The notes beneath the pieces were generated by a model, which was not told the DNA's origin, made no database searches, and saw only the letters and a list, made by a program, of their open reading frames with translations. A stretch of DNA of 43,054 nt. It comes from an uncultured Candidatus Saccharibacteria bacterium (lineage in GTDB: Bacteria > Patescibacteriota > Minisyncoccia > Phycocordibacterales > UBA9973). This document shows positions 23,671 through 42,868 of this stretch, piece by piece. The stretch is taken from positions 1 to 43,054 of the forward strand of contig CAZCND010000002.1 in NCBI GenBank assembly GCA_964500195.1. Direction: 5' to 3'. The translations under genes were made by a program, and so were the position numbers. Positions within the stretch are counted from its first letter, which is position 1; each line of letters starts with the position of its first letter.

Positions 23671-23675
23671 TAATG

Positions 23676-24057
23676 TGGAGATGGCGGGAATCGAACCCGC
23701 GTGCGGAGGGAACTCTTGTATAAATCTACATGTTTATTATGTTCATTTGGTTTAGATATTTACCCTAGAGAACATACAAAAAAAGTAAATACCGAGTTCT
23801 TAATTGTTAGAATCAATACCGAACAATTATTGATTCTTAACCCGATAAATTATGCCCATGATCTATATCGGATGTCTAGAAATGGACACTTGTTTGACCT
23901 AAATTTAGGCGAAAGCAAGAGCAAGGTTTCCAAAATAAGGAGACCCTACTTTAGCGACTTTGTTTACACTTAGTCTTTTAGAGGAAGTTTAAAAAGATTC
24001 CTCTACACTTTACATGCATATACAAGATGATTCTCTTCGTCGAAGCCGATCATCCCC
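23676..24057 (-). ncRNA. ssrA: tmRNA (SsrA), one-piece, CCA not encoded. Predicted tag AKVGSPYFGNLALAFA (resume GCT at 23955-23953, stop TAA at 23907-23905)
   Basis: 5' GGGGATGATCGGCTTCGACG; 3' GCGGGTTCGATTCCCGCCATCTCCA; acceptor stem with G3-U70; lies immediately downstream of smpB. Confidence 0.93.
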
Positions 24058-26969: not shown

Positions 26970-27043
26970 CCGCTTGTAGCTCAGTTGGTTAGAGCATCGA
27001 GCTTATACCTCGAGGGTCCCACGTTCGAGTCGTGGCAAGCGGA
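26970..27043 (+). tRNA. tRNA-Ile with genomically encoded UAU anticodon; CCA not encoded
   Basis: Hand-folded cloverleaf. Acceptor CCGCTTG/CAAGCGG; D arm GCTC-AGTTGGTTA-GAGC; anticodon arm TCGAG-CTTATAC-CTCGA; T arm CCACG-TTCGAGT-CGTGG; discriminator A. Confidence 0.85.
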
Positions 27044-27052
27044 CACGGTTTT

Positions 27053-31734: not shown

Positions 31735-31795
31735 TTTTTTAAAATTTTTAATAAGAAAGAACTCAGTTATTACTAATACTGAGTGTTTATTTTGT

Positions 31796-31952
31796 TGCGG
31801 AATACTAGTCGGGATTTGGTCACGAGTTACTAAATTTTTTGCTCCAAGTATTCGCAAAAAACAAAGTACTCGCGACCCCGTCTCGTCAGTCTGAAAAGTT
31901 TTTCAAACTTTTTTCTGGCTACGACCTTCGAATCCCTGCGTCACTCTCCGCA
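31796..31952 (+). repeat. Element C: second member of the A/B/C structured palindromic family. The 3' end reads ...TTCGAATCCCTGCGTCACTCTCCGCA followed by CCA
   Basis: Same architecture as A: terminal stem TGCGGA/TCCGCA plus GGGATT/AATCCC; long GGTCACGAGTTACT...AGTACTCGCGACC hairpin enclosing TTTTTTGC...GCAAAAAA; GAAAAGTTT-TTC-AAACTTTT hairpin. No promoter seen. Confidence 0.5.
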
Positions 31953-32002
31953 CCACAAACAAAAAACAGCAATAATATTGCTATTTTTTGTTTGTGGTGC
32001 GG
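31948..32002. repeat. Near-perfect 27-1-27 palindrome that starts inside the 3' end of element C
   Basis: CCGCACCACAAACAAAAAACAGCAATA-A-TATTGCTATTTTTTGTTTGTGGTGCGG, one mismatch. Confidence 0.9.
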
Positions 32003-32102
32003 TGTATGTGAGTTAAGTACCCCCACGAGTGAGGCACCACAAGGGTATTCTAGCACATTTTGGAAATGAGAAATGAGGCATGAAGGTCGGGGTCTTGGTT
32101 CT

Positions 32103-32242
32103 GCAAATGTTACAAATGAGACACAAAACACGGTGTCTCGAAACTGTGTCTCATTTGCGAGATGTGATGAAAATACCAAGCCCCAAAAAGACAGATTTGG
32201 ATGAGACAAAACAAGACACGGAAAAGTGACTGTAACATTTGC
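32103..32242. repeat. Nested inverted repeats (MITE/IS-end-like remnant)
   Basis: GCAAATGTTACA (32103-32114) pairs with TGTAACATTTGC (32231-32242); CAAATGAGACAC (32113-32124) pairs with GTGTCTCATTTG (32146-32157). Confidence 0.7.
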
Positions 32243-32357
32243 CTTTACTGCACACATATTTTCTAATATGATTCCAAGTATACATGGACGTATCTGGGCT
32301 GAATCTGATGGAGTTTCTAAAGGAACAAAGGTTACTGTGGAGTTGCCGATAAAGTAG
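32205..32357 (+). pseudogene. C-terminal remnant of a sensor histidine kinase (end of the HATPase_c domain only)
   Basis: Translates to ...IFSNMIPSIHGRIWAESDGVSKGTKVTVELPIK*, the typical HK tail hGG.IwveS..G.Gt.f.f.LP. Upstream G1/G2 boxes and the H-box are absent. Confidence 0.65.
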
Positions 32358-32452
32358 AACCATTACGTTTACTTTGACTTATTTCATAAAAAGTTGTAAA
32401 TTAGATTCATATTTTGTGAGTTTATTGAATCATACATTCTATCAAAATAATT

Positions 32453-33463
32453 ATGAATATAAAAAAAATTTTACCTCCCAGGCTTGATAAGAGTAAGCTG
32501 ATAGGGATTATAGCTCCAGCAGACCCTGTTGCCGGTATTTGTCCAGAGGAGACAATTAAGCGTGGGTACGAATATCTAAAAAATAAGGGATTTTCTGTCA
32601 TCGAGGGACGTTCAGTAAAGCTACTTACACAAAAACATACTGCTGGAACAGCACTATCAAGAGTTGAGGATATTCATGATTTTGTAAAAAGAGAAGATGT
32701 TGGATGTATTATGGCCTTTTGGGGAGGTTTTAATACAAATCAATTGCTTGATAAATTGGATTATGACCTGATTAAAGCAAACCCGAAAATATTCATTGGA
32801 TACTCTGATGTTACAGCACTCACTACCGCGATAACCACTAAGACGGGATTAGTGACTTTTTCTGGGCCAGGAGTAATTTCCTTTGCTAAACCAGAACCTT
32901 TTGAATACACATGGAATTATTTTGAAAAAATATGCATTGATCCACAAGAGAATCTTATTATTGAACCATCTCCAAGCTATGCGGATGATTTATACTTTTT
33001 GCGTGAAGATGACAATCATAGAATCAAAAAAAATAATGACGGTTTAAAAGTATTTACATCAGGAAAAGCAACTGGTGAAATCGTTGCAGGTAATCTTCAG
33101 ACCCTACTAATTTTAAATGGTACAGAGTATTTGCCAGATCTTACTGGAAAGATCCTATTTATTGAAGAAGATGAGACAAGTACCCCAGCGCATGTCGACA
33201 GATTTATATATCAATGTAAACAATTAGGTTGGTTTAAAAAAATTGCAGGATTAGTTATTGGAAGATTTACAGAGCAGTCTAGTTTTTCTGAGAAAGATTC
33301 ATTAGAAGATATTTTAAAAGAGCACCTATTCGAAGCGAAATTTCCGATACTTTATAATGTTGATTTTGGGCATTCTGACCCATTAATCACTATTCCAAAC
33401 GGTGGTATTGCAACTATAGACACTGAAAATAAACGGATAATGTTTCAGCAATCGGTGATGTGA
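32453..33463 (+). CDS. S66-family serine peptidase (LD-carboxypeptidase / MccF-like)
   Basis: Ser-Glu-His triad context GYSDVTAL, FIEEDET, DFGHSDP; 336 aa. Confidence 0.85.
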   Translation: MNIKKILPPRLDKSKLIGIIAPADPVAGICPEETIKRGYEYLKNKGFSVIEGRSVKLLTQKHTAGTALSRVEDIHDFVKREDVGCIMAFWGGFNTNQLLDKLDYDLIKANPKIFIGYSDVTALTTAITTKTGLVTFSGPGVISFAKPEPFEYTWNYFEKICIDPQENLIIEPSPSYADDLYFLREDDNHRIKKNNDGLKVFTSGKATGEIVAGNLQTLLILNGTEYLPDLTGKILFIEEDETSTPAHVDRFIYQCKQLGWFKKIAGLVIGRFTEQSSFSEKDSLEDILKEHLFEAKFPILYNVDFGHSDPLITIPNGGIATIDTENKRIMFQQSVM

Positions 33464-33470
33464 TAAAAAT

Positions 33471-34790
33471 ATGTCCAACAATAAAAATCAATCAATAATA
33501 AAAAATATAGAAAAGGTATTGAATGATAAAGTTTCTTATAAAAAAGGAAACTTATTTCACATCGTTAGTCACGTCACAAAGAAAAGTAAGCAAATAAAAA
33601 GTCTTGTAAATAAAAATAAAACTCCTTTTTATGTTTTTGACCAACAAGCACTCGATAATTCCATAGATTTATTTCTGGAAGCATTTAAAAAAGAAATTCC
33701 TTCGTTTAAATCTTACTATGCTCTTAAAATAAACCATCATCCATTTATTATTCAGTGTGCGGTTGATAAAGGAATGGGACTTGATGTTGGAAGTCGTCGG
33801 GAAATCGATATTGCAATAAATGCAGGTTGTAAAGATATTCTTTACTTCAGTCCTGGTAAGACGAAAGATGATTTATTGTATGCAATAAAATATGTAGATG
33901 TTATTACTATTAATATAGATAGTTTTAACGAACTAAAAAAACTAGGTTCCCTAGCAAACAGTAAAAAGAAGCCTATTAAGGCTGGCATACGAATTCATAC
34001 TGACCAATATGGCGATTGGAAAAAATACGGGGTTCATATTAATGAACTAAAAACCTTCTTTAAAGAAGCTGAGAAATACCCCTTTATTGATCTTCAGGGT
34101 ATTCATTTCCACATGTCCAGAAATAAAGATGCTACATTTTATGAAAATACCATAAAAGAGTTGGGGGCTTACCTGAAGAAAAACTTTAATTCAAATGAGT
34201 TGCAAAAAATTAAATACATTGACTTTGGCGGCGGGTTTGAGGTTTATGAATCAGAAGGATACTATCCCTACAAGACACCGCAAGGCGGTATCATACAAAC
34301 AACTAATTCTTACACTGGAACACCGTCCATATTTGATGTTTCATATTACATTCGCGATGCTATTAAAATTGATGAGTATGCCAAAAAAATCGGGCAAGCA
34401 ATAAACGATTATCTCAAACCAATAGTAAGTGCCACGTATTACTCGGAACCTGGACGTATAATATGTAATAGCGCCATGTATATAGTACTGTCTGTTGCTG
34501 ATGCTAAAAACAAAGATAACGTCGTCTTGGACGGTGGAGTAAACATGGTCGGCTGGCAACGTTTCGAACATGAATATTTTCCTTTAGTAAACTTATCTTC
34601 TCCATCAAAAAAAGAAATTAAATGCAACATGTGGGGTAATCTTTGCACCACATGGGATACGTGGGGTTACTATTGCTATGCAAATAGAATACGAGAGGGA
34701 GATATTATTGTTGTCCCCAATCAGGGAGCGCTTACTTACTCACTAGCACAAAATTTTATTCAACCAATTCCGCCAGTTTATAAAATATAA
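33471..34790 (+). CDS. Fold-type III PLP-dependent decarboxylase (Orn/DAP/Arg decarboxylase family)
   Basis: PLP-Lys context YYALKIN, HFHMS, DFGGGF, SEPGRIICNSA, GNLCTTWD, GALTYSLAQNF. Confidence 0.85.
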   Translation: MSNNKNQSIIKNIEKVLNDKVSYKKGNLFHIVSHVTKKSKQIKSLVNKNKTPFYVFDQQALDNSIDLFLEAFKKEIPSFKSYYALKINHHPFIIQCAVDKGMGLDVGSRREIDIAINAGCKDILYFSPGKTKDDLLYAIKYVDVITINIDSFNELKKLGSLANSKKKPIKAGIRIHTDQYGDWKKYGVHINELKTFFKEAEKYPFIDLQGIHFHMSRNKDATFYENTIKELGAYLKKNFNSNELQKIKYIDFGGGFEVYESEGYYPYKTPQGGIIQTTNSYTGTPSIFDVSYYIRDAIKIDEYAKKIGQAINDYLKPIVSATYYSEPGRIICNSAMYIVLSVADAKNKDNVVLDGGVNMVGWQRFEHEYFPLVNLSSPSKKEIKCNMWGNLCTTWDTWGYYCYANRIREGDIIVVPNQGALTYSLAQNFIQPIPPVYKI

Positions 34791-34798
34791 TCAAAAAT

Positions 34799-35620
34799 AT
34801 GAAAAAAGAACTTATTACACCAGAATATATTAAGGGTTTATCTTATACGGATTTCGTGGGACTAATTAATCAGTGGAATGTATTGCCAGGTTCACACGTC
34901 ACATTATCGAAATGGACATGTTTTTCTGGGTTAAATAAAAATTCAAGACTTTTGGAAGTTGCTTGTACTACTGGTTTTTCATCTCGCGAACTCGCACTTC
35001 TCTCAGGCTGTAGCGGTGAAGGATTTGACCTTTCAGAAAAATCTATCAAAATGGCAGACTACAACAAGGAACAATATGCACCCAAAATTGATTTTTCATA
35101 TTCTGTAGCCGATGGATATAAATATAAATCTGATAAACCATTTACTCACATAGCAGTTGGTGCCTCTCTTGGTTTTTTTCCTGATCCAGCAAAAATGCTA
35201 GAAAGGTGCATCAGCATGCTTGAGGATGGTGGACACATTCTCGCTTCTCCGTTTTATGTGACAAAACCATTACCTCAAGCACTAGTTAAAAGAGCACAGA
35301 GAGTGTTCGATATCACTCCAACCGGGATTTCTTACAAAGAAATTATGAAATCGTACAACAAGCTTGAAGTGATTTTTGAAGAGCGGAACAGCTTAGTTCA
35401 AGAGACCAAGGAGGAGCTTGATTACTATTGCAAGTGCACCATAGACCGTGCATGCAAAATGCTTGATATCACGGATAAAAAGGTATACGAGGCTATGTAT
35501 AAAAGGCTTTACGAAGTAAAAAAGATGTCAAACGACCTACGTCCTTACCAGATGTACAGTATACTTGTCTTAAGGTACAGAAAGGCTATATATCCAAATA
35601 GATTTGTTGAGTTGTTTTAA
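34799..35620 (+). CDS. Class I SAM-dependent methyltransferase-fold protein
   Basis: Motif I LLEVACTTGFSS; acidic loop GFDLSEKSI; motif IV-like IAVGASLGFF. Confidence 0.7.
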   Translation: MKKELITPEYIKGLSYTDFVGLINQWNVLPGSHVTLSKWTCFSGLNKNSRLLEVACTTGFSSRELALLSGCSGEGFDLSEKSIKMADYNKEQYAPKIDFSYSVADGYKYKSDKPFTHIAVGASLGFFPDPAKMLERCISMLEDGGHILASPFYVTKPLPQALVKRAQRVFDITPTGISYKEIMKSYNKLEVIFEERNSLVQETKEELDYYCKCTIDRACKMLDITDKKVYEAMYKRLYEVKKMSNDLRPYQMYSILVLRYRKAIYPNRFVELF

Positions 35621-35624
35621 AAAC

Positions 35625-36143
35625 ATGATACTAACTGGAAGCAAAATTAAAGATGAAATAAAATCTGGCGACATCGTCATTGAGCCATTTTGCAATGAAC
35701 AAGTTAATCCAAACAGTTACAATTATCGACTTGGTTCTACTATAAAAGTTTTTAACGGATTCGACGGCGACAAGGCTAATTTTAAAGAGATAAAAATACC
35801 AAAAGACGGTTATGTTTTAGAGCCAAGGAAAATGTATCTTGCGACCACCAAAGAAGTAATTGGCAGTTCAAAGTATGCAATGTCCCTTATCGGCAGAAGC
35901 TCGATGGGTAGGTACGGTCTTTTCTTGCAAGTGTCAGCAAACCTTGGACATACTACTTCAAAACATAAATGGACTTTAGAAATTGTAGCTGCAAGGCCAA
36001 TAAAACTATATCCTGGCATGATAATCGGACAAGTTTCATTTTGGAAAAATTATGGCACAGTTAAAAAATATAATGGCAAATACGGTCATTTAAACCATCC
36101 TCAGGAATCATTTGTTCCCATAACTCAATACCAAAAAATATGA
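35625..36143 (+). CDS. dcd: dCTP deaminase family protein, paralog 1, canonical catalytic residues (ATG at 35625; the track start 35604 overlaps the upstream gene)
   Basis: GRSSMGRYG (Ser/Arg), WTLEI (catalytic Glu), YPGMIIGQVSF. Confidence 0.8.
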   Translation: MILTGSKIKDEIKSGDIVIEPFCNEQVNPNSYNYRLGSTIKVFNGFDGDKANFKEIKIPKDGYVLEPRKMYLATTKEVIGSSKYAMSLIGRSSMGRYGLFLQVSANLGHTTSKHKWTLEIVAARPIKLYPGMIIGQVSFWKNYGTVKKYNGKYGHLNHPQESFVPITQYQKI

Positions 36144-36679
36144 TACTAACAGGTAAAAAAATAATTGAGGAGTTTAAAAAAGGAAAAATTGATATTTCTC
36201 CTTTTGATAAGAAGAGAATAACGACAAACTCTTATGACTTATCCCTAGGACATAATATTGTTCGATACAAAACTGGTGTAATTGACCCAAAATGTAAACC
36301 CCAGCACGAAGAGATAATTATACCTGAAGAAGGTTTGGTGCTTGAGGCTGGAGATTTTGTACTAGGTCATTCAAGCGAGCGTATCGGCAGTGATTTTTAT
36401 GTTCCTATTATACATGGAAAATCTGGTACAGCTAGAATGGGATTGTTCGTACATGTCACTGCTGATTTAATAGATATTGGTTCGCACGGCGTCACAACCT
36501 TTCAACTGTATGCTACTCTTCCAGTTCGATTGTATCCAGGAATGCTTATTGCTCAAGTTAGCTTCTGGCTTCCTTTAGGGGATATCGTTTTATACAAAGG
36601 AAAGTATCAGAATAGCACTGGACCGCTACCATCTTTAACATATAAAGATTTCAAATACGATCTTTTTAAGAAGAAATAA
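36140..36679 (+). CDS. dCTP deaminase family protein, paralog 2, catalytic Glu replaced by Gln; ATGA overlap with paralog 1
   Basis: GKSGTARMG, TTFQL aligned to WTLEI, YPGMLIAQVSF; same MILTG.KI N-terminus as paralog 1. Confidence 0.75.
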   Translation: MILTGKKIIEEFKKGKIDISPFDKKRITTNSYDLSLGHNIVRYKTGVIDPKCKPQHEEIIIPEEGLVLEAGDFVLGHSSERIGSDFYVPIIHGKSGTARMGLFVHVTADLIDIGSHGVTTFQLYATLPVRLYPGMLIAQVSFWLPLGDIVLYKGKYQNSTGPLPSLTYKDFKYDLFKKK

Positions 36680-36772
36680 GATTTTCGATTTCGGGTTGAC
36701 AAAGTAACTATTTTATATTAGTTTGTCGGTAGTACTGTTCGTTAACAATCAACCAAATTAAGGAGGTGTATC

Positions 36773-38221
36773 ATGGCAAGAAAAAGTGAAAAGAAGAGGA
36801 CGAAAGCCCTCGAAATTGATCCACTTGCGTATCGCCGTGAGGCACCAAGAGGATCAGTTGAAGTTTGTGACCTAGACAGAGTACTCCATGGAGAAAAGAT
36901 CACCGTTGTTGGGAGGCTTATGCTTTCTGACAATACAGGTGAAATTTCCAAACTTGGAGTATTTGGCACACTGGATGGAAAGGAAGTTCTTACTCTCGAG
37001 AGAATCGAGGGGAATGGGCTATCAATTCCTGCATTCCTCATGCGTACACCAGAAAACATCGAGATAATGAACTCCGTTATCCACTACGGAGACGTCGTGA
37101 TGTTGGAGGGTGTAAAGCTCTGCATTTCAGGGGAAGATGTAGTTCTTGGAAACGGTATCAAGTTGCTTTCCAAAGCAACGGGTGATGTTTATGACAGCAA
37201 CGTTGATTTTCGTAAGAGATCAAATTTGTATGATCACAGACATCTTCAGTTGATTCAAAACCAAGGAAAGATTCTGCACTTTCGGAGATGCTCGATAGTA
37301 TTCCGCGCAATAAGGCAATTCCTATACAAGGAGGGGTATGATGAACTAAGCATGACTTTGCTTCAGAAAAACTTTGAAGCGGGTCTGGCTGATCCATTCG
37401 TAACACACGTTGCCCAACATGACAGGGATATGTATCTGAGATTGACATCAGAGCTGTTTCTCCGAAAATTGATGGTTGCTGGATTCTCGAAGGTATTTGA
37501 GATCGGTAAATCATTCAGAAATCAAGGGGCCACAGCCGACATGCTTCCTCAGTTTACAATTCTTGAACTGTATCGTGCGTATGCCAGCAGAGAAGAGATA
37601 GAAAACCTAGCAAAGAACATGATCTGCGAAGTTCTTGTTCAATTGTACGGGAGTCCGTCAATTCCCACTGCCAAAGGAGAGATAGATTGCTCGGGAGACT
37701 GGCCATTGTATGATTTTAAGGAAGAAATCGAGAAGTGTACAGGCTTAAGATATGACGAATCACGTCCTGTCGAAGAGTTGGTACACATTTTGGACAAGGC
37801 GGAAATTGCTCATCCTGCAAAGGTGAACAAATATACTGTGGCTACTGCCCTGTACTGCCACGTGATGTCCCACATCACGGGCCCCGCTTTCCTGAGGAAT
37901 CTGCCAGCCGCTCAATCTCCGCTTTTCAAGGTAAACGATGATGGGTCGACCGTTGATGAAACTCTTCTTGTTATTAACGGGATGCTTGTCGCTGACCTTG
38001 TTAATCCAGAGCGTGATCCTCGCCTTATCAGACAGCACATGGAGGAACAATTGACTTACCGCAAGGAAAGTCAAAACGATGGTGTTAACGAAGACATCAT
38101 CAGTGCAATGAAGTTCGGTCTACCTCCATGTAGAGGTATTGGAATGGGATTGGAGCGTCTTCTTATGCTTCTGCTAAACACGGAGGACATAAGAGATGTG
38201 GAACTCTTCCCTGTATTTTGA
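36773..38221 (+). CDS. Divergent class IIb aminoacyl-tRNA synthetase paralog, LysRS-like, with an N-terminal OB-fold region
   Basis: Motif 2 FRNQGATADMLPQFTILELYRAY (LysRS consensus fRNEG...HNPEFT..E.Y.AY); motif 3 GIGMGLERLLMLLL..IRDVELFP; AAGGAGGTG SD. Confidence 0.8.
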   Translation: MARKSEKKRTKALEIDPLAYRREAPRGSVEVCDLDRVLHGEKITVVGRLMLSDNTGEISKLGVFGTLDGKEVLTLERIEGNGLSIPAFLMRTPENIEIMNSVIHYGDVVMLEGVKLCISGEDVVLGNGIKLLSKATGDVYDSNVDFRKRSNLYDHRHLQLIQNQGKILHFRRCSIVFRAIRQFLYKEGYDELSMTLLQKNFEAGLADPFVTHVAQHDRDMYLRLTSELFLRKLMVAGFSKVFEIGKSFRNQGATADMLPQFTILELYRAYASREEIENLAKNMICEVLVQLYGSPSIPTAKGEIDCSGDWPLYDFKEEIEKCTGLRYDESRPVEELVHILDKAEIAHPAKVNKYTVATALYCHVMSHITGPAFLRNLPAAQSPLFKVNDDGSTVDETLLVINGMLVADLVNPERDPRLIRQHMEEQLTYRKESQNDGVNEDIISAMKFGLPPCRGIGMGLERLLMLLLNTEDIRDVELFPVF

Positions 38222-38241
38222 GATGAGGTTTATAACCACGC

Positions 38242-38273
38242 ACCCCGTGTCAGTTTCTGACACGGGGTTTTTG
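38242..38273 (+). terminator. Terminator of the LysRS-like gene
   Basis: ACCCCGTGTCAG-TTT-CTGACACGGGGT plus TTTTT. Confidence 0.8.
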
Positions 38274-38278
38274 TTTAT

Positions 38279-38850
38279 CAGGAAACCCCGCCCGCTTTTC
38301 TGCCTGAGCGTGCGGGGATGAATGGAACCATATACGTATCGCATTCTGATGTGATACGCTTGGTTGCATGAGAATCCGAAGCTTGAATCACTCTGTCTAC
38401 CAAACTCAATATCACCTCGTTTGGGGAACGTTGTATCGTAGAAAATATCTGAAAGAATATGTAAAGAATGAATTTGTCACTCACATCTACACTGTCATCA
38501 AAAAATATCCCACACTCCATATACATAGTATTAATGCAAACGATGACCATGTGCACCTTCAGATTGAAATACCACCAAGCGTCGCTATTGCTGCCGTCGT
38601 GAGGCGTTTGAAAGTGGAGACAAGTATTTACCTTAAGAAACGATTTAAATTTATACGTGAAATGTATATCGACGGCAGCATATGGAGTGTTGGGTATTTT
38701 GTCTCGACAATCGGACTGAATGAGGCGGTAATCGAAAAATATATTGCAAACCAAAATCGAAAAGACAAGGGTGTAACCACTAGCTTCGGGTTCTCATGAG
38801 ATCCAAGGAAACCCCGTCCATCTCTCGTCTGCGAGAGTGTACGGGGAGGA
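38279..38850 (+). mobile_element. IS200/IS605-family insertion sequence (tnpA only) with subterminal hairpins
   Basis: LE hairpin CCCCGCCCGC...GCGTGCGGGG (38286-38317) and RE hairpin CCCCGTCCATCTCTCG-TCTG-CGAGAGTGTACGGGG (38812-38846). Both are preceded by the identical GGAAACCCCG. Confidence 0.8.
38368..38799 (+). CDS. tnpA: IS200/IS605 Y1 (HUH) transposase TnpA
   Basis: YHLVWGTLYRRKYL, HUH motif DDHVHLQI, catalytic Tyr context WSVGYFVSTIG, EKYIANQ. Confidence 0.92.
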   Translation: MRIRSLNHSVYQTQYHLVWGTLYRRKYLKEYVKNEFVTHIYTVIKKYPTLHIHSINANDDHVHLQIEIPPSVAIAAVVRRLKVETSIYLKKRFKFIREMYIDGSIWSVGYFVSTIGLNEAVIEKYIANQNRKDKGVTTSFGFS

Positions 38851-38864
38851 CGTCCATTATATAT

Positions 38865-38900
38865 AAAAAAGGGGCTACAGACAGTGTCCATAGCCCCTTG
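38865..38900 (-). terminator. Terminator of the PheRS-like gene
   Basis: Minus strand AAGGGGCTA...TAGCCCCTT plus TTTTT. Confidence 0.75.
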
Positions 38901-38924
38901 GAACGATTCACCACAGATAGGACA

Positions 38925-40040
38925 TTACATGTACCCTCGATCTCCTTGATTTAGCTTAGGGTAGAGGCGCTGCATCCACCCATTGACCATCGCCTTCGGC
39001 AAAGAACTTTCCAGTGAACGGAATGTCAGTGTTACCACAACATTCTTTTGGTCTGGTCTGATACCGAGGTTTAGTCTCGCCTTTTCTGGAAGTTTATCAT
39101 AGGAAATTTCGGAGTACTCGATCTTCTCTATGAAAACGGCGTCTTGTCCCAGCTCATCGCGAATTTCTTCGCAGATGTCTTCTTCTGTTTTCTCAACAGA
39201 AGTAGAATACGACAGCACCCTTTTCGTTGCAGGCTGATCAGAGACGGTGACGAATTTTTCAAGATTCGCCATCTGACGCTTTATTCGAGGATCATCCGAT
39301 CTCAGAACACGAATGTCATCGATGCCTTTGATGATCATGACGAGTCGATCAAGACCCATACCCAGAGCGAGCCCTGAATACTCTTCAGGATCGAGACCAG
39401 CGTTTTTGAGAACAGTCGGATGGGCTTCGCCACATTCGAGAACTTCGAGCCACGAACCGTTAACAAAAACTTCCACCTCGAGACCCCGCATCGTGTAAGG
39501 ATGTTCAACTTCATTCGCTCGATATTTACATCCTGGAACAACACATTCCAGAATAGTTTCAACCAAGTGAATCAGGTCTGATCGGACGAAACGAGGTGAC
39601 CCCTGTTTTATTCGCCAGACATCCATTTGATGAGGCTCACCGCAATGAGTTTTATCGACAACGTCGCGTCGATAACACATTCCAGGCAAGACAACGACAG
39701 TATCGCCGATACCATTTTGAGAGGCTTTTTTGAGCCAACTCGGAATAGCTGACGAAGTGTGGGTACGCAAGACAGTATCTTCCGTAACATACCTCGTATA
39801 GCGAGAAGACCGCCCTGCATTATCTAACGGGAAGAGAAGGTCGTCGAAGTTTTCTTTTGATGAGACTTCCGGGTTCGAACGAACTTCCTCGACAACTGCT
39901 CCAGCATAGGATTTCTCCAGTGCTCGTCTTACGTTACCAACGACAATGTTGATGGCATGGATCCCATTCTTGGGATCAGTGAGGTCTGGGAGGGCTATAG
40001 AGGCCATCAGACGCTCTGGTGACATAACTTCTTTTTTCAT
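38925..40040 (-). CDS. Divergent class IIc aaRS paralog: PheRS-alpha-like catalytic core fused to a C-terminal FDX-ACB-like domain, with no N-terminal coiled coil
   Basis: NFDDLLFPLDNAGR, VLRTHTSS, motif 2 PGMCYRRDVVDKTHCGEPHQMDVW, motif 3 GLALGMGLDRLVMI. The C-terminal ~95 aa ends VVVTLTFRSLESSLPKAMVNGWMQRLYPKL, which resembles ferredoxin-fold anticodon-binding domains. Confidence 0.75.
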   Translation of the reverse strand: MKKEVMSPERLMASIALPDLTDPKNGIHAINIVVGNVRRALEKSYAGAVVEEVRSNPEVSSKENFDDLLFPLDNAGRSSRYTRYVTEDTVLRTHTSSAIPSWLKKASQNGIGDTVVVLPGMCYRRDVVDKTHCGEPHQMDVWRIKQGSPRFVRSDLIHLVETILECVVPGCKYRANEVEHPYTMRGLEVEVFVNGSWLEVLECGEAHPTVLKNAGLDPEEYSGLALGMGLDRLVMIIKGIDDIRVLRSDDPRIKRQMANLEKFVTVSDQPATKRVLSYSTSVEKTEEDICEEIRDELGQDAVFIEKIEYSEISYDKLPEKARLNLGIRPDQKNVVVTLTFRSLESSLPKAMVNGWMQRLYPKLNQGDRGYM

Positions 40041-40306
40041 GACCGTGTCTCCTTTTCTGTCTGTGCCGTGTCATTACTGACGTGGCTAGGTTTGAGTGAT
40101 ACTAACTTCCGATACTCCTCTAAGTGATCCCTACGCAGGACCGCTAGCCATCGGCCAGCTTTTGACTTATCAGAGTTGTTTGTAACCGCAAAAATCATCT
40201 CAAATGCGGCCGATGGGCTACTACTCTCATCCACTAAAGAGACGATTTTTTCGTCACTTAGTATGGAGGAGCATCGTGCCCTGATTTCTTGAGCTGATCT
40301 GATCAT
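40037..40306 (-). CDS. Hypothetical 89-aa protein, translationally coupled (ATGA overlap) to the PheRS-like gene; ATG at 40306 preferred over the track start 40360
   Basis: AGGAGG 9 nt upstream of the ATG at 40306; its stop overlaps the downstream start; no family recognised. Confidence 0.6.
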   Translation of the reverse strand: MIRSAQEIRARCSSILSDEKIVSLVDESSSPSAAFEMIFAVTNNSDKSKAGRWLAVLRRDHLEEYRKLVSLKPSHVSNDTAQTEKETRS

Positions 40307-40563
40307 AGCTTGATACCTCCTATCTTTAGTATTGTTAAAGAACAACACCCACAGGAACATCCTATAGGTACCCCATCATACATATTATTAATACAAATGT
40401 CAATCTTTTTTGGGGCACATTAGCCAATCAGAGGTTACCAACACCTACCACTAAGGGCGCTCTGGACTCCTGAGAGGTGTTGCGTCATTCCTTGTGTTGT
40501 ATGACAAACGCAACAACACAAGCGCCATTAGGGACTACGGCCAAAGTAGTAGTCCCCGTAAAG

Positions 40564-41829
40564 ATGAAATACTGCCTCTATGCGAGAAAGTCGACAGAGT
40601 CAGAAGAAAGACAAGTCCTTTCAATAGATAGCCAAATCAGCGAGATGCTCCAATTAGCCGATCGTGAGGGGCTTGAGGTGGTCACCATGAAGCGTGAAAG
40701 CCATAGTGCTAAAGAGACTGGTCAGAGACCAGTATTTAACGAAATGGTTGAAGAACTCAAACAAGAGAAGTTCAATGCAATCCTCACTTGGGCACCTGAT
40801 CGTATTTCAAGAAATGCAGGCGACCTTGGAAAAATAGTAGATCTAATGGATTCAGGTAAACTACATATAATAAGAACCTTCGGACAAACTTTTGGAAATA
40901 ATCCAAATGAGAAATTCCTTCTCATGATTCTAGGCTCACAAGCAAAACTAGAAAATGATAATCGAGGTATCAACGTGAAGCGAGGATTACGAACAAGAGT
41001 AGAGATGGGATTATGGCCTGGCATGGCACCACTTGGATATTTAAACCAAAAATTAATGGACAGGAAGTGTCAAATAGTAATTGATCCAGATAGAGCACCA
41101 ATCATTAAGAAAATGTTTGAGAAAGTAGTGTATGAACATTGGAGTGGTAGAAAGGTATATAACTGGTTACGATTTGATTTAAATTTCTATACTCGAGGAA
41201 ATAAACCCCTGACACTCTCAGGGGTTTATCGTATTTTTAATATGCCAATCTATTATGGACCATTTGAATATCCTAGAAATTCTGATAACTGGTATCAAGG
41301 AAGTCATACACCAATAATTACTCAAGAGTTATTTGAAAAAGCTCAAGCACAATTAAAGAGAGATAGGATTGTAAGAGAAAATAGAGAGTTCGCATTCACT
41401 AAACTGTTCACCTGCGGCATGTGCGGGTCAGGCATCACCGCCCAAGAAAAGTACAAAATACTCAAGGACGGTACGAACGCCAAGTACATCTACTATTCAT
41501 GCTCCAAGGCAAAGGACCGTGATTGCAAGAACAAATACATCCGAGAAGAGGAATTGATCGACGAACTCTTCAAGATTATCGACCAGGTGAATATCAACGA
41601 ACTTGGGATGCGCATGAAACTTGAGGAAGAGATTAAACGATTCAACCGACTACAGCGATTGGCAACCAAGGGTACACCAAAATACAATATCAACGAGGAT
41701 GAAATTAATACCCGGGAATACGCCAAGTATGTACTCAAGGAAGGCACTGCGCTCGAAAAACGAGAGCTTCTAGGACATCTAAGATCACGATTACTACTGG
41801 AAGACAAGAAGATTAGCCTGGTTCAGTAA
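40564..41829 (+). CDS. Large serine recombinase (resolvase domain, recombinase domain, zinc ribbon, coiled coil); ATG at 40564 preferred over 40477
   Basis: N-terminus MKYCLYARKSTESEERQ (catalytic Ser context), AILTWAPDRISRN, CGMCGS...YYSCSKAKDRDCKNKY zinc ribbon. Confidence 0.88.
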   Translation: MKYCLYARKSTESEERQVLSIDSQISEMLQLADREGLEVVTMKRESHSAKETGQRPVFNEMVEELKQEKFNAILTWAPDRISRNAGDLGKIVDLMDSGKLHIIRTFGQTFGNNPNEKFLLMILGSQAKLENDNRGINVKRGLRTRVEMGLWPGMAPLGYLNQKLMDRKCQIVIDPDRAPIIKKMFEKVVYEHWSGRKVYNWLRFDLNFYTRGNKPLTLSGVYRIFNMPIYYGPFEYPRNSDNWYQGSHTPIITQELFEKAQAQLKRDRIVRENREFAFTKLFTCGMCGSGITAQEKYKILKDGTNAKYIYYSCSKAKDRDCKNKYIREEELIDELFKIIDQVNINELGMRMKLEEEIKRFNRLQRLATKGTPKYNINEDEINTREYAKYVLKEGTALEKRELLGHLRSRLLLEDKKISLVQ

Positions 41830-41859: not shown

Positions 41860-42429
41860 ATGGAACAAAACTCTACTAAAAAAGTATTCCTTATCCACGG
41901 GTTTCAAGGTACGCCAAATGGTGGATGGCGTTCTTATCTTATGAGCGAACTGGAGAAGCAGGATATCTACGCCTGTTCTCTTTCAATGCCTAAACCAGAC
42001 GAGCCAATTCTTTCTGAATGGTTAGAAGAAAACAAAAGACATATCGACAGAAATCCAAACGATGATATTTATCTAGTTGGTCACAGTCTAGGAGGAACTG
42101 CCATTCTTAGATATCTAGAGCAATTTAATTCTTCAAATCTTAAGGGGGTGGTTATTGCATCTGCTCCATGCCATCAAAATATCAATAGCAAGATTGTTGA
42201 TTTTCTTCGCACAGATTTTAACTGGGAGGTAATGAAGAATAAGGTTGAGCATGTGGTCGTTATTCATGGTGACAATGACCCGAATGTTCCAGTCTCAGAT
42301 GCAGAAGAGACAAGTAATCAATTAAATGGAAAACTTGTCCTTATTCCAGACGGAAAACATTTGAACGGTTCAGCAGGATTTACTGAGTTACCTGAAGCAT
42401 TATCAGCACTAACTGAAATGATGAAATAA
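41860..42429 (+). CDS. Alpha/beta serine hydrolase, YdeN/RBBP9-like
   Basis: VFLIHGFQG, nucleophile elbow GHSLGG, VVVIHGDNDPNVP. Confidence 0.75.
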   Translation: MEQNSTKKVFLIHGFQGTPNGGWRSYLMSELEKQDIYACSLSMPKPDEPILSEWLEENKRHIDRNPNDDIYLVGHSLGGTAILRYLEQFNSSNLKGVVIASAPCHQNINSKIVDFLRTDFNWEVMKNKVEHVVVIHGDNDPNVPVSDAEETSNQLNGKLVLIPDGKHLNGSAGFTELPEALSALTEMMK

Positions 42430-42430
42430 T

Positions 42431-42826
42431 ATGAAAACAATACTTGTAGATGCAGTAAATACAACAATCATCAAAGATGAGTCCGGATCATTCGTGCAAT
42501 TCAAAGAACTTTTTGATTTACTTGAAACCTATTCAAACCCAAAACTTATTGTTACCAATGCTAACGACAATCAACTAATTGAATTTGGACTCAATGATGT
42601 TCCTTATCAAGTATTCACTATGAAGCATAGTCCTGATAAACCAGATCCTGTTTACTTCAAGACACTTCTTGAACAACACAGCTGGCAACCGACTGATGTC
42701 ATTTATTTTGAACACAATCCTGATGCAGTGAAATCAGCTGAGTTAGTTGGCATTACTTCCTATCATTACGATAAGGATAAGAAAGATCTAACAGGATTGA
42801 AACAGTTTCTTGATCAGAATAGTTAA
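42431..42826 (+). CDS. Small HAD-like hydrolase-fold protein with a degenerate motif I
   Basis: N-terminal ILVDAVNT in place of DxDxT; VTNAND; short 131-aa length. Confidence 0.4.
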   Translation: MKTILVDAVNTTIIKDESGSFVQFKELFDLLETYSNPKLIVTNANDNQLIEFGLNDVPYQVFTMKHSPDKPDPVYFKTLLEQHSWQPTDVIYFEHNPDAVKSAELVGITSYHYDKDKKDLTGLKQFLDQNS

Positions 42827-42828
42827 AA

Positions 42829-42868
42829 ACAAAAAGAGCGACATTGTCGCTCTTTTTGTTTTATATCA
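42829..42868 (+). terminator. Intrinsic terminator after the HAD-like gene
   Basis: AAAAAGAGCGAC-ATT-GTCGCTCTTTTT. Confidence 0.8.

Follow-up and report, generated by a model that had tools for sequence, protein, structure and literature searches.

The locus described here raises the question of what relatives of the enzymes that tailor microcin C and protect its producer are doing in a member of the Patescibacteria, next to two proteins with the dCTP-deaminase (DCD) fold and to paralogs of aminoacyl-tRNA synthetases (aaRSs). It lies in a stretch of 43,054 nucleotides (nt) from an uncultured Candidatus Saccharibacteria bacterium (GenBank assembly GCA_964500195.1, contig CAZCND010000002.1, positions 1 to 43,054 of the forward strand), to which we refer as the window. 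To our knowledge, albomycin, microcin C and agrocin 84 are the only natural families of Trojan-horse aaRS inhibitors that are understood, the biosynthesis of agrocin 84 being unsolved, and Patescibacteria and DPANN archaea are thought to have almost no secondary metabolism. A preliminary description, made from the sequence alone, had pointed to five tightly spaced genes on one strand at 32453-36679, assigned them folds, and suggested a pathway towards a modified (deoxy)cytidine nucleotide or aminoacyl-nucleotide with self-protection. The coordinates of the open reading frames (ORFs) match exactly, Pfam finds all five folds, and the homologies to MccD and MccF together with the conserved neighbourhood favour the suggested pathway. 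We propose that the locus is a biosynthetic cassette that operates independently of MccB and would make an aminopropylated aminoacyl-pyrimidine-nucleotide of the aaRS-inhibitor type, with MccF-type immunity; we put the chances of this proposal at slightly better than even.

In E. coli, MccD and MccE transfer a 3-amino-3-carboxypropyl group from S-adenosylmethionine (SAM) and then decarboxylate it to aminopropyl (PMC8323819). The third of the five genes encodes a methyltransferase-fold protein whose best match among solved structures is MccD itself (PDB 5fcd, E 5.8e-25 over the full length), the next chain following only at 1.8e-4. It is 26% identical to E. coli MccD over 259 of its 273 residues (E 4e-30) and 24% identical to AgnB1 (E 1e-22), where these and the other pairwise BLAST E-values are those of single comparisons. 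AgnB1 is a 273-amino-acid (aa) methyltransferase encoded between agnA and agnB2 on pAgK84, a plasmid that thus combines agnA (aaRS-like), agnB1 (MccD-like), agnB2 (a resistant LeuRS) and agnC5 (MccF-like). The motif AC(S/T)TGF is common to the window protein, MccD and AgnB1. Among 72,556 plasmids, the protein matches mccD of the mcc plasmids of E. coli, Salmonella and Yersinia, followed by agnB1, and its family is small, with 149 representatives at E<=1e-10 and 25 at E<=1e-30 among 1.84 billion entries. On sequence grounds the protein is a true, full-length MccD/AgnB1 homolog that stands far above other methyltransferases, which settles the alternative left by the preliminary description, and we regard it as a putative 3-amino-3-carboxypropyl transferase. 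Its start codon follows the stop codon of the decarboxylase gene by 8 nt; in locus L053, mccD and mccE overlap.

The first gene encodes an S66 peptidase (N and C domains with E 4e-34 and 2e-31 in Pfam), for which the choice lay between MccF, the enzyme that cleaves the aminoacyl-nucleotide amide, and the muramoyl-tetrapeptide or LD-carboxypeptidase LdcA. It groups with MccF and AgnC5, being 35% identical to E. coli MccF (E 2e-53) and 31% identical to AgnC5 (E 8e-48). PDB chains of MccF and MccF-like proteins match at 1e-49 to 7e-63 (170-216 bits), against 1e-15 to 1e-19 (36-102 bits) for murein/muramoyl-tetrapeptide or LD-carboxypeptidase chains, and in the LdcA equivalog model, whose cut-off is 378 bits, the protein scores 128. 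The catalytic triad S118/E243/H311 is invariant in all 37 cluster-associated S66 proteins. In the subtype found in the window, Trp186 is replaced by Leu and Arg246/Lys247 by Glu/Thr; the latter two residues presumably bind the acidic side chain in MccF. Trp186 is retained in AgnC5 and in the S66 subtype of the loci with AlaRS-like proteins and of DPANN archaea. In MccF, which hydrolyses the aminoacyl-nucleotide amide, W186 stacks on adenine, and HIT, S51 and GNAT proteins likewise protect against aminoacyl-nucleotide compounds (PMC8323819). Because W186 and R246/K247 are replaced, aspartyl-adenylate is an unlikely substrate of the window peptidase, and the charge reversal of its predicted side-chain pocket suggests a basic or neutral aminoacyl group.

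The second gene encodes a fold-type III decarboxylase dependent on pyridoxal phosphate (PLP), with the Orn/DAP/Arg decarboxylase fold at E 9e-30 (PF02784 and PF00278). Direct reading of the sequence reveals the PLP lysine, the glycine-rich motifs and the C-terminal Cys of the family; Pfam finds no fused GNAT domain. The protein falls below every curated equivalog, with 148.6 bits in the lysA model TIGR01048 (cut-off 297.9) and 42.7 bits in the nspC model (cut-off 409), so that a bona fide LysA, which would have spoken for a different pathway, is not what we find. Its best PDB match is nevertheless LysA (4e-24, confined to the barrel). With the N-domain of MccE it shares 22% identity (E 2e-10), and LysA chains score better. 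The fold-type III PLP fold is confirmed; affiliation to the MccE clade is not demonstrable.

The fourth and fifth genes, here called DCDa and DCDb, encode proteins with the PF22769 fold (E 3e-31 and 3e-33), which reach 81.6 and 97.9 bits, respectively, in the dCTP deaminase model TIGR02274 (cut-off 92.8). For DCDa, a start at ATG 35625 agrees with the N-termini of its homologs. When 41 DCDa and 40 DCDb sequences were aligned with M. tuberculosis Dcd, whose numbering we use, DCDa had an invariant equivalent of Glu129 with Asp119 changed to His or Gln and Phe122 to Ser. DCDb had invariant Asp119 and His112, with Glu129 changed to Gln (30 sequences) or Met (10) and Phe122 to Ser. The window DCDa carries His at the Asp position and the window DCDb carries Gln at the Glu position. 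Glu129, corresponding to E138 in E. coli, is the residue that we take to be the catalytic Glu, the roles of the other Dcd residues being likewise assumed. Canonical Dcd has this Glu and the Asp of the IDPGF motif in one chain, and neither DCDa nor DCDb does. Judged from the alignment, the two are a conserved complementary pair, the simplest reading of which would be that they assemble into an obligate hetero-oligomer whose modified active site discriminates less strictly between sugars. Gene pairs with this signature are also found on plasmids of Rhizobium, Streptomyces and Nonomuraea. The methyltransferases beside the pairs on the Rhizobium and actinomycete plasmids are not MccD-like, and the DCD pair is therefore a more widely used module.

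Two of these plasmid settings deserve description in their own right. On pFRL6 of Streptomyces sp. F12 (L058, 8824-16361) and on a Nonomuraea plasmid (L059, 8833-15677), DCDa and DCDb belong to a different conserved set with a small ATP-binding protein, a cytidine-deaminase-like protein and a class I methyltransferase outside the MccD family, accompanied by sugar-nucleotide enzymes, a glycosyltransferase and, in L058, a HAD hydrolase, with MazG and Tra genes nearby. This set is a candidate nucleotide or DNA modification cluster, of which we found no published account. A plasmid of Streptomyces sp. NBC_00239 (L057, 8864-23751) carries a nucleoside-antibiotic-like cluster in which the DCD pair is found without an MccD homolog, alongside HIT and ProRS-related proteins, a LysRS/EpmA-like catalytic-domain protein and an S66 peptidase. 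Its further genes encode radical SAM enzymes, glycosyltransferases, a TauD dioxygenase and an rRNA adenine methyltransferase.

The preliminary description had also noticed a synthetase paralog just downstream, and this gene, a class II synthetase of the D/K/N type in Pfam (PF00152, E 2e-47) that starts 93 nt after DCDb, proved to be part of the conserved unit. Its product resembles LysRS but stays below the cut-offs of both LysRS models (254.5 vs 468 bits and 217.1 vs 427.6 bits), and its members, all of about 482 aa, form a discrete clade that is separated from true LysRS by a drop in score from 382 to 193 bits. Throughout this family FRNEG is FRNQ, and the positions of H270, N271 and the Mg-binding E414 and E421 are not conserved. 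The protein keeps the Arg residues of motifs 2 and 3 and also E278/Y280, residues that we take to bind the epsilon-amino group of lysine (the roles of the other LysU residues are assumed in the same way). In an AlphaFold2 model (mean pLDDT 75.7) it has an OB-fold N-domain and aligns with full-length LysRS. The residues of the Mg site map to a region of moderate model confidence, and the protein may still be catalytically competent, because acidic residues lie 2-3 positions away from these places. An ordinary resistant LysRS is an unlikely identity for this protein given that motif 2 and the Mg site are altered, even though the OB domain is retained. Compared with AgnA, it gives E 5e-9.

A second paralog, SrmL, is the "PheS-related mystery ligase" of NCBI model NF051887 (402.1 bits against a cut-off of 300, with full-length coverage). 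It combines a core of the PheRS-alpha type with a C-terminal FDX-ACB-like domain, in the manner of mitochondrial PheRS, and its homologs carry PF03147. The Arg residues of motifs 2 and 3 are kept; in what we take to be the Phe pocket, from assumed PheS residue roles, FPFTEPS has become HPYTMRG and GFAFG has become GLALG. SrmL adjoins the LysRS-like gene in L001, L004, L006, L008, L010, L015, L065 and L066. We found no function for it in the literature, and NF051887 carries a name only; it now gains genomic partners, namely the LysRS-like paralog, the S66 peptidase, and either the MccD/DCD set or a set with AgnA and a carbamoyltransferase. The SrmL operon opens with a small ORF that matches no Pfam, NCBIfam or PADLOC model. 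We place its start at Met24 of a 107-aa ORF, and from this internal Met it is 61-87% identical in L004, L006, L008 and L015.

SrmL homologs also occur in loci without MccD and DCD. One of them (L061) has the gene beside a second PheS-like gene, an S51 peptidase, and GNAT, NUDIX, ATP-grasp and Mur-ligase proteins, and another (L063) beside an S66 peptidase, a carbamoyltransferase, several radical SAM enzymes and two adjacent GlyRS genes. A further observation concerns the start of SrmL in the window, the first 26 nt of which (40015-40040) are 88% identical to the first 26 nt of the MccD-like gene (34799-34824) on the opposite strand, both proteins beginning with MKKE-x-x-(T/S)-P-E. This may reflect chance or local gene conversion, because the N-terminus is not conserved across the MccD-like family.

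Whether these genes belong together was addressed by a scan of one genome per species in 185,579 species, which returned 49 loci; two more came from protein look-ups, and 48 distinct loci were analysed. The MccD-like gene, DCDa and DCDb are found together in 43 of the 48, most exceptions being contig ends. An S66 peptidase is present in 36, a protein of about 377 aa consisting of an AlaRS catalytic domain in 31, and a full-length LeuRS in eight. The LysRS-like paralog occurs in eight loci in addition to the window, and the decarboxylase in 20, which include every locus with the LysRS-like gene. At least 12 independent loci repeat the order S66-decarboxylase-methyltransferase-DCD-DCD. Patescibacteria of many classes and DPANN archaea carry the set, as do two cultured bacteria, Paenibacillus baekrokdamisoli and Burkholderia lata, as well as Roseateles, Aquimonas, and Flavobacteriales and alphaproteobacterial metagenome-assembled genomes (MAGs). 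The gene set is conserved as a neighbourhood across phyla and domains.

The versions in free-living bacteria look like antibiotic gene clusters. That of Paenibacillus comes with two ABC exporters and, besides its methyltransferases and a carbamoyltransferase, with an AMP-binding enzyme, an SDR protein and an additional AlaRS that is bona fide (799 bits). The Burkholderia version includes a bona fide LeuRS (883 bits) along with an MFS transporter, an ATP-grasp enzyme and an aldehyde dehydrogenase. In Roseateles (L036) and Aquimonas (L046), LeuRS stands directly beside the MccD-like gene, as it does in the agn cluster. L065 has the order LysRS-like, SrmL, S66, decarboxylase, MccD, DCDa, DCDb, with a HIT hydrolase of the family of the phosphoramidase MccH, and L066, which has neither MccD nor DCD, joins an AgnA homolog (31% identity, E 2e-35), a carbamoyltransferase, a methyltransferase and a nitrilase-family protein to S66, LysRS-like and SrmL genes. 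Natural-product gene clusters typically mix and match their core, tailoring and immunity modules in this way. A standard mcc cluster, which had already been doubted for the window, is ruled out: tblastn with E. coli MccB and MccC found neither in the window or in any of the 49 related loci, and Pfam found no ThiF domain in the cassette.

Comparison with L004, whose cassette is 84-87% identical at the nucleotide level and whose flanks are unrelated, shows that the unit is larger than the 32453-36679 first noted. Homology is confined to 32294-38278 and 38857-40404, and we therefore set the limits of the cassette at 32294-40404 (Table 1). Beyond the five genes it takes in the LysRS-like paralog, a convergent operon made of the small ORF and SrmL, and a later IS200 insertion. 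The five ORFs are separated by 7, 8, 4 and -4 nt with the ATG start of DCDa, and the third gap becomes -17 nt if the upstream TTG at 35604 is used instead. The IS200 stretch is missing from L004, L006 and L008, which are otherwise collinear with the window, and the insertion is hence secondary and recent. It sits exactly between the two convergent terminators and leaves both operons intact.

Table 1. Features of the cassette and of its immediate borders in the window.
Feature	Coordinates	Strand	Basis or remark
Upstream conserved region, left boundary	32294..32452	+	L004 homology starts at 32294, 80-84% identity; farther upstream unrelated
Promoter-like hexamers	32374-32402	+	weak consensus match only
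S66 serine peptidase, MccF/AgnC5 branch, 336 aa	32453..33463	+	Pfam, MccF comparison
Fold-type III PLP-dependent decarboxylase, 439 aa	33471..34790	+	PF02784 + PF00278
MccD/AgnB1-family SAM-dependent transferase, 273 aa; putative 3-amino-3-carboxypropyl transferase	34799..35620	+	PDB 5fcd match
DCDa, dCTP-deaminase fold	35625..36143	+	PF22769
DCDb, dCTP-deaminase fold	36140..36679	+	PF22769
LysRS-like class IIb paralog, 482 aa	36773..38221	+	PF00152
Intrinsic-terminator-like hairpin, end of + operon	38242..38268	+	12-pair stem, 8 G-C, then T run; sequence conserved in L004
IS200/IS605 insertion	38279..38856	+ (tnpA 38368-38799)	PF01797 E 9e-29; NF033573 109 bits
Intrinsic-terminator-like hairpin, end of - operon	38869..38899	-	14-pair stem, then T run
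SrmL, "PheS-related mystery ligase", 371 aa	38925..40040	-	NF051887
Conserved small ORF, 84 aa, first gene of SrmL operon	40037..40291	-	overlaps SrmL by 4 nt
Promoter-like site of small-ORF/SrmL operon	40375..40403	-	TTGACA-17-TATGAT, 11/12 positions, best match of the region
Right boundary of shared cassette	40404		L004 homology stops
Large serine recombinase, directly outside cassette	40477..41829	+	Resolvase, Recombinase and Zn_ribbon_recom domains

The cassette is a mobile unit of 7.5 kb that moves horizontally, and the adjacent serine recombinase probably aids its movement. Homologous recombinases flank the cluster in L012, L020, L025, L030 and L065, and the MccD-like proteins of Patescibacteria and DPANN archaea are 59-64% identical. 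No MccD-like relative was found in 2.9 million viral contigs of IMG/VR, which leaves a phage origin unsupported, and a search with the peptide deformylase of the window found no allele free of the island. The LysRS-like gene, SrmL and the small ORF have a GC content of 0.45-0.47, 9-12 points above the 0.33-0.37 of the five upstream genes, and the same is seen in other low-GC hosts; the GC content of SrmL is near 0.49 in most hosts, with flanks of 0.33-0.55, and lower (0.41) in L015. This difference from the five upstream genes suggests that the three form a module that has travelled separately and recently.

Around the cassette, the window is low in GC (about 0.33-0.35) and holds housekeeping genes, among them those for FtsH, a RecG-like helicase, acetate kinase, peptide deformylase, a transfer-messenger RNA (tmRNA) and tRNA-Ile. 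The last two are unrelated to the cassette: the tmRNA (23673-24057) encodes the tag VNKVAKVGSPYFGNLALAFA, and the tRNA-Ile (26970-27044) has the anticodon UAU (TAT in the DNA) and would decode AUA without needing lysidine. A segment of about 530 nt (31760-32293) at the cassette's left junction lacks a plausible ORF and holds a near-perfect palindrome of 27+27 nt and a second long hairpin (31948-32002, 32099-32171). Rfam gives no match above threshold in this segment and the related loci have no counterpart of it; an insertion may have left it as a scar, or it may be a remnant of an att-like site. The S66 gene is preceded by a 700-nt gap, of which only the last ~160 nt are conserved with L004; a search there for non-coding RNAs and tRNAs gave only sub-threshold chance matches to a palindrome. 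Downstream of the serine recombinase (41860-42826), an alpha/beta hydrolase of the Ser_hydrolase family is followed by a short HAD-like protein, after whose gene there is a perfect terminator-like palindrome of 18+18 nt at 42826-42862.

The homologies, the adjacency and the co-occurrence described above would fit the following course of events, in which all substrates, the sequence of steps and the part played by the DCD pair are our inference. A DCDa/DCDb hetero-oligomer would bind a cytosine nucleoside triphosphate and supply a pyrimidine nucleotide by deamination and/or alpha-beta cleavage, CTP being possible besides dCTP because the ribose-gate aromatic residue is Ser in the pair. An aaRS-type ligase, perhaps the LysRS-like protein and/or SrmL here and the AlaRS-catalytic-domain protein in most relatives, would couple an amino acid to the nucleotide. 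The MccD homolog would move the 3-amino-3-carboxypropyl group of SAM onto the conjugate and the neighbouring PLP decarboxylase would trim it to aminopropyl. Finally, the MccF-type S66 peptidase, its triad being intact, would cleave the aminoacyl-nucleotide amide and so protect the producer. With less confidence, the alkyl-ammonium-binding residues of the LysRS-like protein and the charge-reversed pocket of the peptidase may point to a lysine-like or aminopropyl cationic group, and the fact that the LysRS-like gene is strictly accompanied by the decarboxylase might fit the same.

Several observations weigh against this scheme. For none of the cassette proteins is a product, substrate or activity known, and both the phosphoramidate-forming step and the role given to the DCD pair are without precedent. 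Even for agrocin 84, the function of AgnB1 in synthesis is unknown (PMC8323819). As far as its sequence tells, the decarboxylase is not specifically MccE-like. The two ligases of the window keep domains of the anticodon-binding type that would be superfluous in a purely small-molecule ligase. In actinomycete plasmid clusters the DCD pair occurs without MccD or S66, in sets that resemble nucleotide or DNA modification. No exporter was found in or beside the window cassette, nor consistently in the loci of Patescibacteria or DPANN archaea. Lastly, many of the taxon labels derive from MAG bins or short MAG contigs and are possibly wrong.

Some of the same observations could be explained if the cassette were an island for resistance or detoxification and its carrier not a producer at all. 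The S66 peptidase, joined in relatives by HIT, S51 and GNAT proteins, would then destroy imported aminoacyl-nucleotide antibiotics and the DCD pair would deaminate a toxic cytosine nucleotide, while the MccD homolog and the decarboxylase would inactivate by alkylation and the LysRS-like protein and SrmL would replace sensitive synthetases with insensitive ones. This would account for the missing exporter and the retained tRNA-anticodon-type domains, and it is consistent with the co-occurrence of S66, HIT, S51 and GNAT, the families of microcin C resistance, with SrmL or the LysRS-like gene, as well as with the fact that stand-alone MccF homologs are common (PMC8323819). Nonetheless we consider it unlikely. 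MccD is a biosynthetic enzyme that raises toxicity (PMC8323819), the MccD-like gene and the DCD pair are also clustered with exporters, AMP-binding or ATP-grasp ligases and carbamoyltransferases, and the two ligases are poor candidates for substitutes given that the LysRS-like protein departs from LysRS at ATP and Mg positions and the pocket of SrmL is not a Phe pocket. Far more improbable still is the salvage of peptidoglycan peptides, which had been offered as an alternative in the preliminary description and in which LdcA would free D-Ala, LysA would turn meso-diaminopimelate to lysine and LysRS would use the lysine. What speaks for it is a resemblance of folds only (an S66 peptidase, a fold-type III decarboxylase and a LysRS-like protein). 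All three proteins miss the curated cut-offs (LdcA 128/378, LysA 148.6/297.9, LysRS 254.5/468 and 217/428), the peptidase is far nearer MccF than LdcA, and the MccD-like protein and the DCD pair would go unexplained. Most loci, moreover, lack both decarboxylase and LysRS-like gene while S66 stays with the AlaRS-like ligase. We reject this alternative on the combined evidence of cut-offs and neighbourhood.

Two further explanations would turn the cassette towards nucleic acids. The DCD pair might channel dCTP into nucleotide-pool or DNA modification with an anti-restriction or anti-phage purpose, with the MccD homolog and the decarboxylase attaching an aminopropyl group, or one derived from an amino acid, to a pyrimidine nucleotide or to DNA, much like the hypermodification of thymidine in phages. 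DNA base modifications that are derived from amino acids and decarboxylated by a PLP enzyme are known from the pathways of phages ViI and M6. Linear plasmids of Streptomyces and Nonomuraea do carry DCDa and DCDb, in the company of a kinase-like protein, cytidine deaminase, methyltransferase, sugar-nucleotide enzymes and glycosyltransferase next to MazG/Tra genes, and the island of L065 includes a DNA methyltransferase, PycTM and Fic. We think this rather unlikely all the same, since S66, the aaRS-like ligases, the extra LeuRS and AlaRS and the exporters would have no place in it and a partner of the DNA-binding, polymerase or glycosylase kind is missing. PADLOC matches only a generic methyltransferase fold among the cassette proteins and no known anti-phage system, and the viral contigs yielded no relative. 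Alternatively, the LysRS-like protein and SrmL might be genuine tRNA ligases that charge a non-canonical amino acid produced by the other enzymes or feed a tRNA-dependent transferase, which we regard as quite improbable. SrmL does have the monomeric, mitochondrial-type PheRS architecture with FDX-ACB and is related to the PheRS/SepRS/PylRS group, the LysRS-like protein does keep its OB-fold N-domain, and the amino-acid pockets of both ligases are conserved yet altered. But no tRNA gene lies in or near the cassette, the tRNA-Ile at 26970 and the tmRNA at 23673-24057 being all that ARAGORN and Rfam detect in the window; most related loci use an AlaRS-like protein reduced to its catalytic domain; and the cassette has no tRNA-dependent transferase of the Fem, GNAT or cyclodipeptide-synthase type.

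We therefore return to the MccB-independent biosynthetic cassette and to what it would mean. It ties the tailoring and immunity enzymes of microcin C to a module of the agrocin type, is found mainly in Patescibacteria and DPANN archaea, and contains components without precedent in such pathways, namely the complementary DCD pair and the full-length LysRS-like and PheRS-like paralogs; it also gives genomic context to the NCBI "mystery ligase" SrmL. In the literature we found no description of the gene set, of MccD with a dCTP deaminase, of MccF in Patescibacteria, of a DCD pair in nucleoside-antibiotic biosynthesis, or of microcin C or agrocin in CPR (candidate phyla radiation) bacteria or DPANN archaea. 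It is conceivable, though we advance this tentatively and would not call it probable, that these loci represent a new MccB-independent class of aminoacyl-(aminopropyl)-pyrimidine-nucleotide antimetabolites that is exchanged between Patescibacteria and DPANN archaea and whose warhead is made by a heteromeric DCD and re-purposed full-length aaRS paralogs; genome-reduced episymbionts would then have a chemical means to attack or control translation in their hosts or competitors. Should the cassette be biosynthetic as proposed, it would offer an antimetabolite scaffold and an enzymatic route to P-N or amide bonds on nucleotides, both of them new, and a handle on the interaction of ultra-small symbionts with their hosts. 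Two carriers, Paenibacillus baekrokdamisoli KCTC 33723 and Burkholderia lata LMG 23254, are in culture, so that the question is open to direct test.

How the cassette relates to known systems can be seen part by part. With Dcd and DCD-DUT enzymes, DCDa and DCDb share the PF22769 fold, the Ser-Arg pair, the C-terminal K-Y triphosphate-binding motif and a similar length. They differ in that they are always two adjacent paralogs, each without one canonical residue and with Ser for the IDPGF aromatic residue, and in that they sit in clusters that resemble those of secondary metabolism and not in nucleotide metabolism. For the ligases, albomycin offers a precedent, since its SerRS AbmK gives seryl-adenylate to AbmF and confers immunity (PMC8323819), so that an aaRS paralog in a nucleoside-antibiotic cluster can supply both the aminoacyl-adenylate and protection. 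Relatives of the cassette also carry carbamoyltransferases and methyltransferases, which in albomycin act on the cytosine base. In contrast to albomycin, the cassette lacks siderophore, thiosugar and radical-SAM core genes.

Like microcin C (mccABCDEF), the cassette has an MccD-family transferase beside a fold-type III PLP decarboxylase and an S66 peptidase of the MccF branch with the Ser-His-Glu triad intact, and it would appear to follow the same logic of aminopropyl decoration and hydrolytic self-immunity. Unlike microcin C, it has no ThiF-like MccB, no MccA peptide gene, no MccC pump and no GNAT fusion; identity is low (26% to MccD, 22% to the N-domain of MccE), the MccF residues Trp186 and Arg246/Lys247 are replaced, and the DCD pair and aaRS paralogs are added. 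In agrocin 84 synthesis, the aaRS-like AgnA is the proposed phosphoramidate-forming enzyme and AgnB2 a resistant LeuRS, the roles of AgnA and AgnB1 themselves being only predicted (PMC8323819). The cassette resembles that system in its class IIb aaRS-like, MccD-family (AgnB1 also having 273 aa) and MccF-like proteins and in lacking MccB. Eight related loci have a full LeuRS beside the cluster, in the manner of agnB2, and L066 joins an AgnA homolog to the trio of S66, LysRS-like and SrmL genes. It differs from agrocin 84 in that the window has neither LeuRS nor homologs of AgnC1-C7, D, E, F and G, and that its LysRS-like protein has the full length and an OB domain, AgnA consisting of the catalytic domain only; the agn cluster, for its part, has neither DCD pair nor decarboxylase. 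Because the genes for MccA, MccB, MccC and AgnC-G are absent, the cassette is a member of neither type. Taken together, we argue that it resembles in its working the tailoring and immunity part of the mcc system fused to an agn-type module of aaRS-like and MccD-like proteins.

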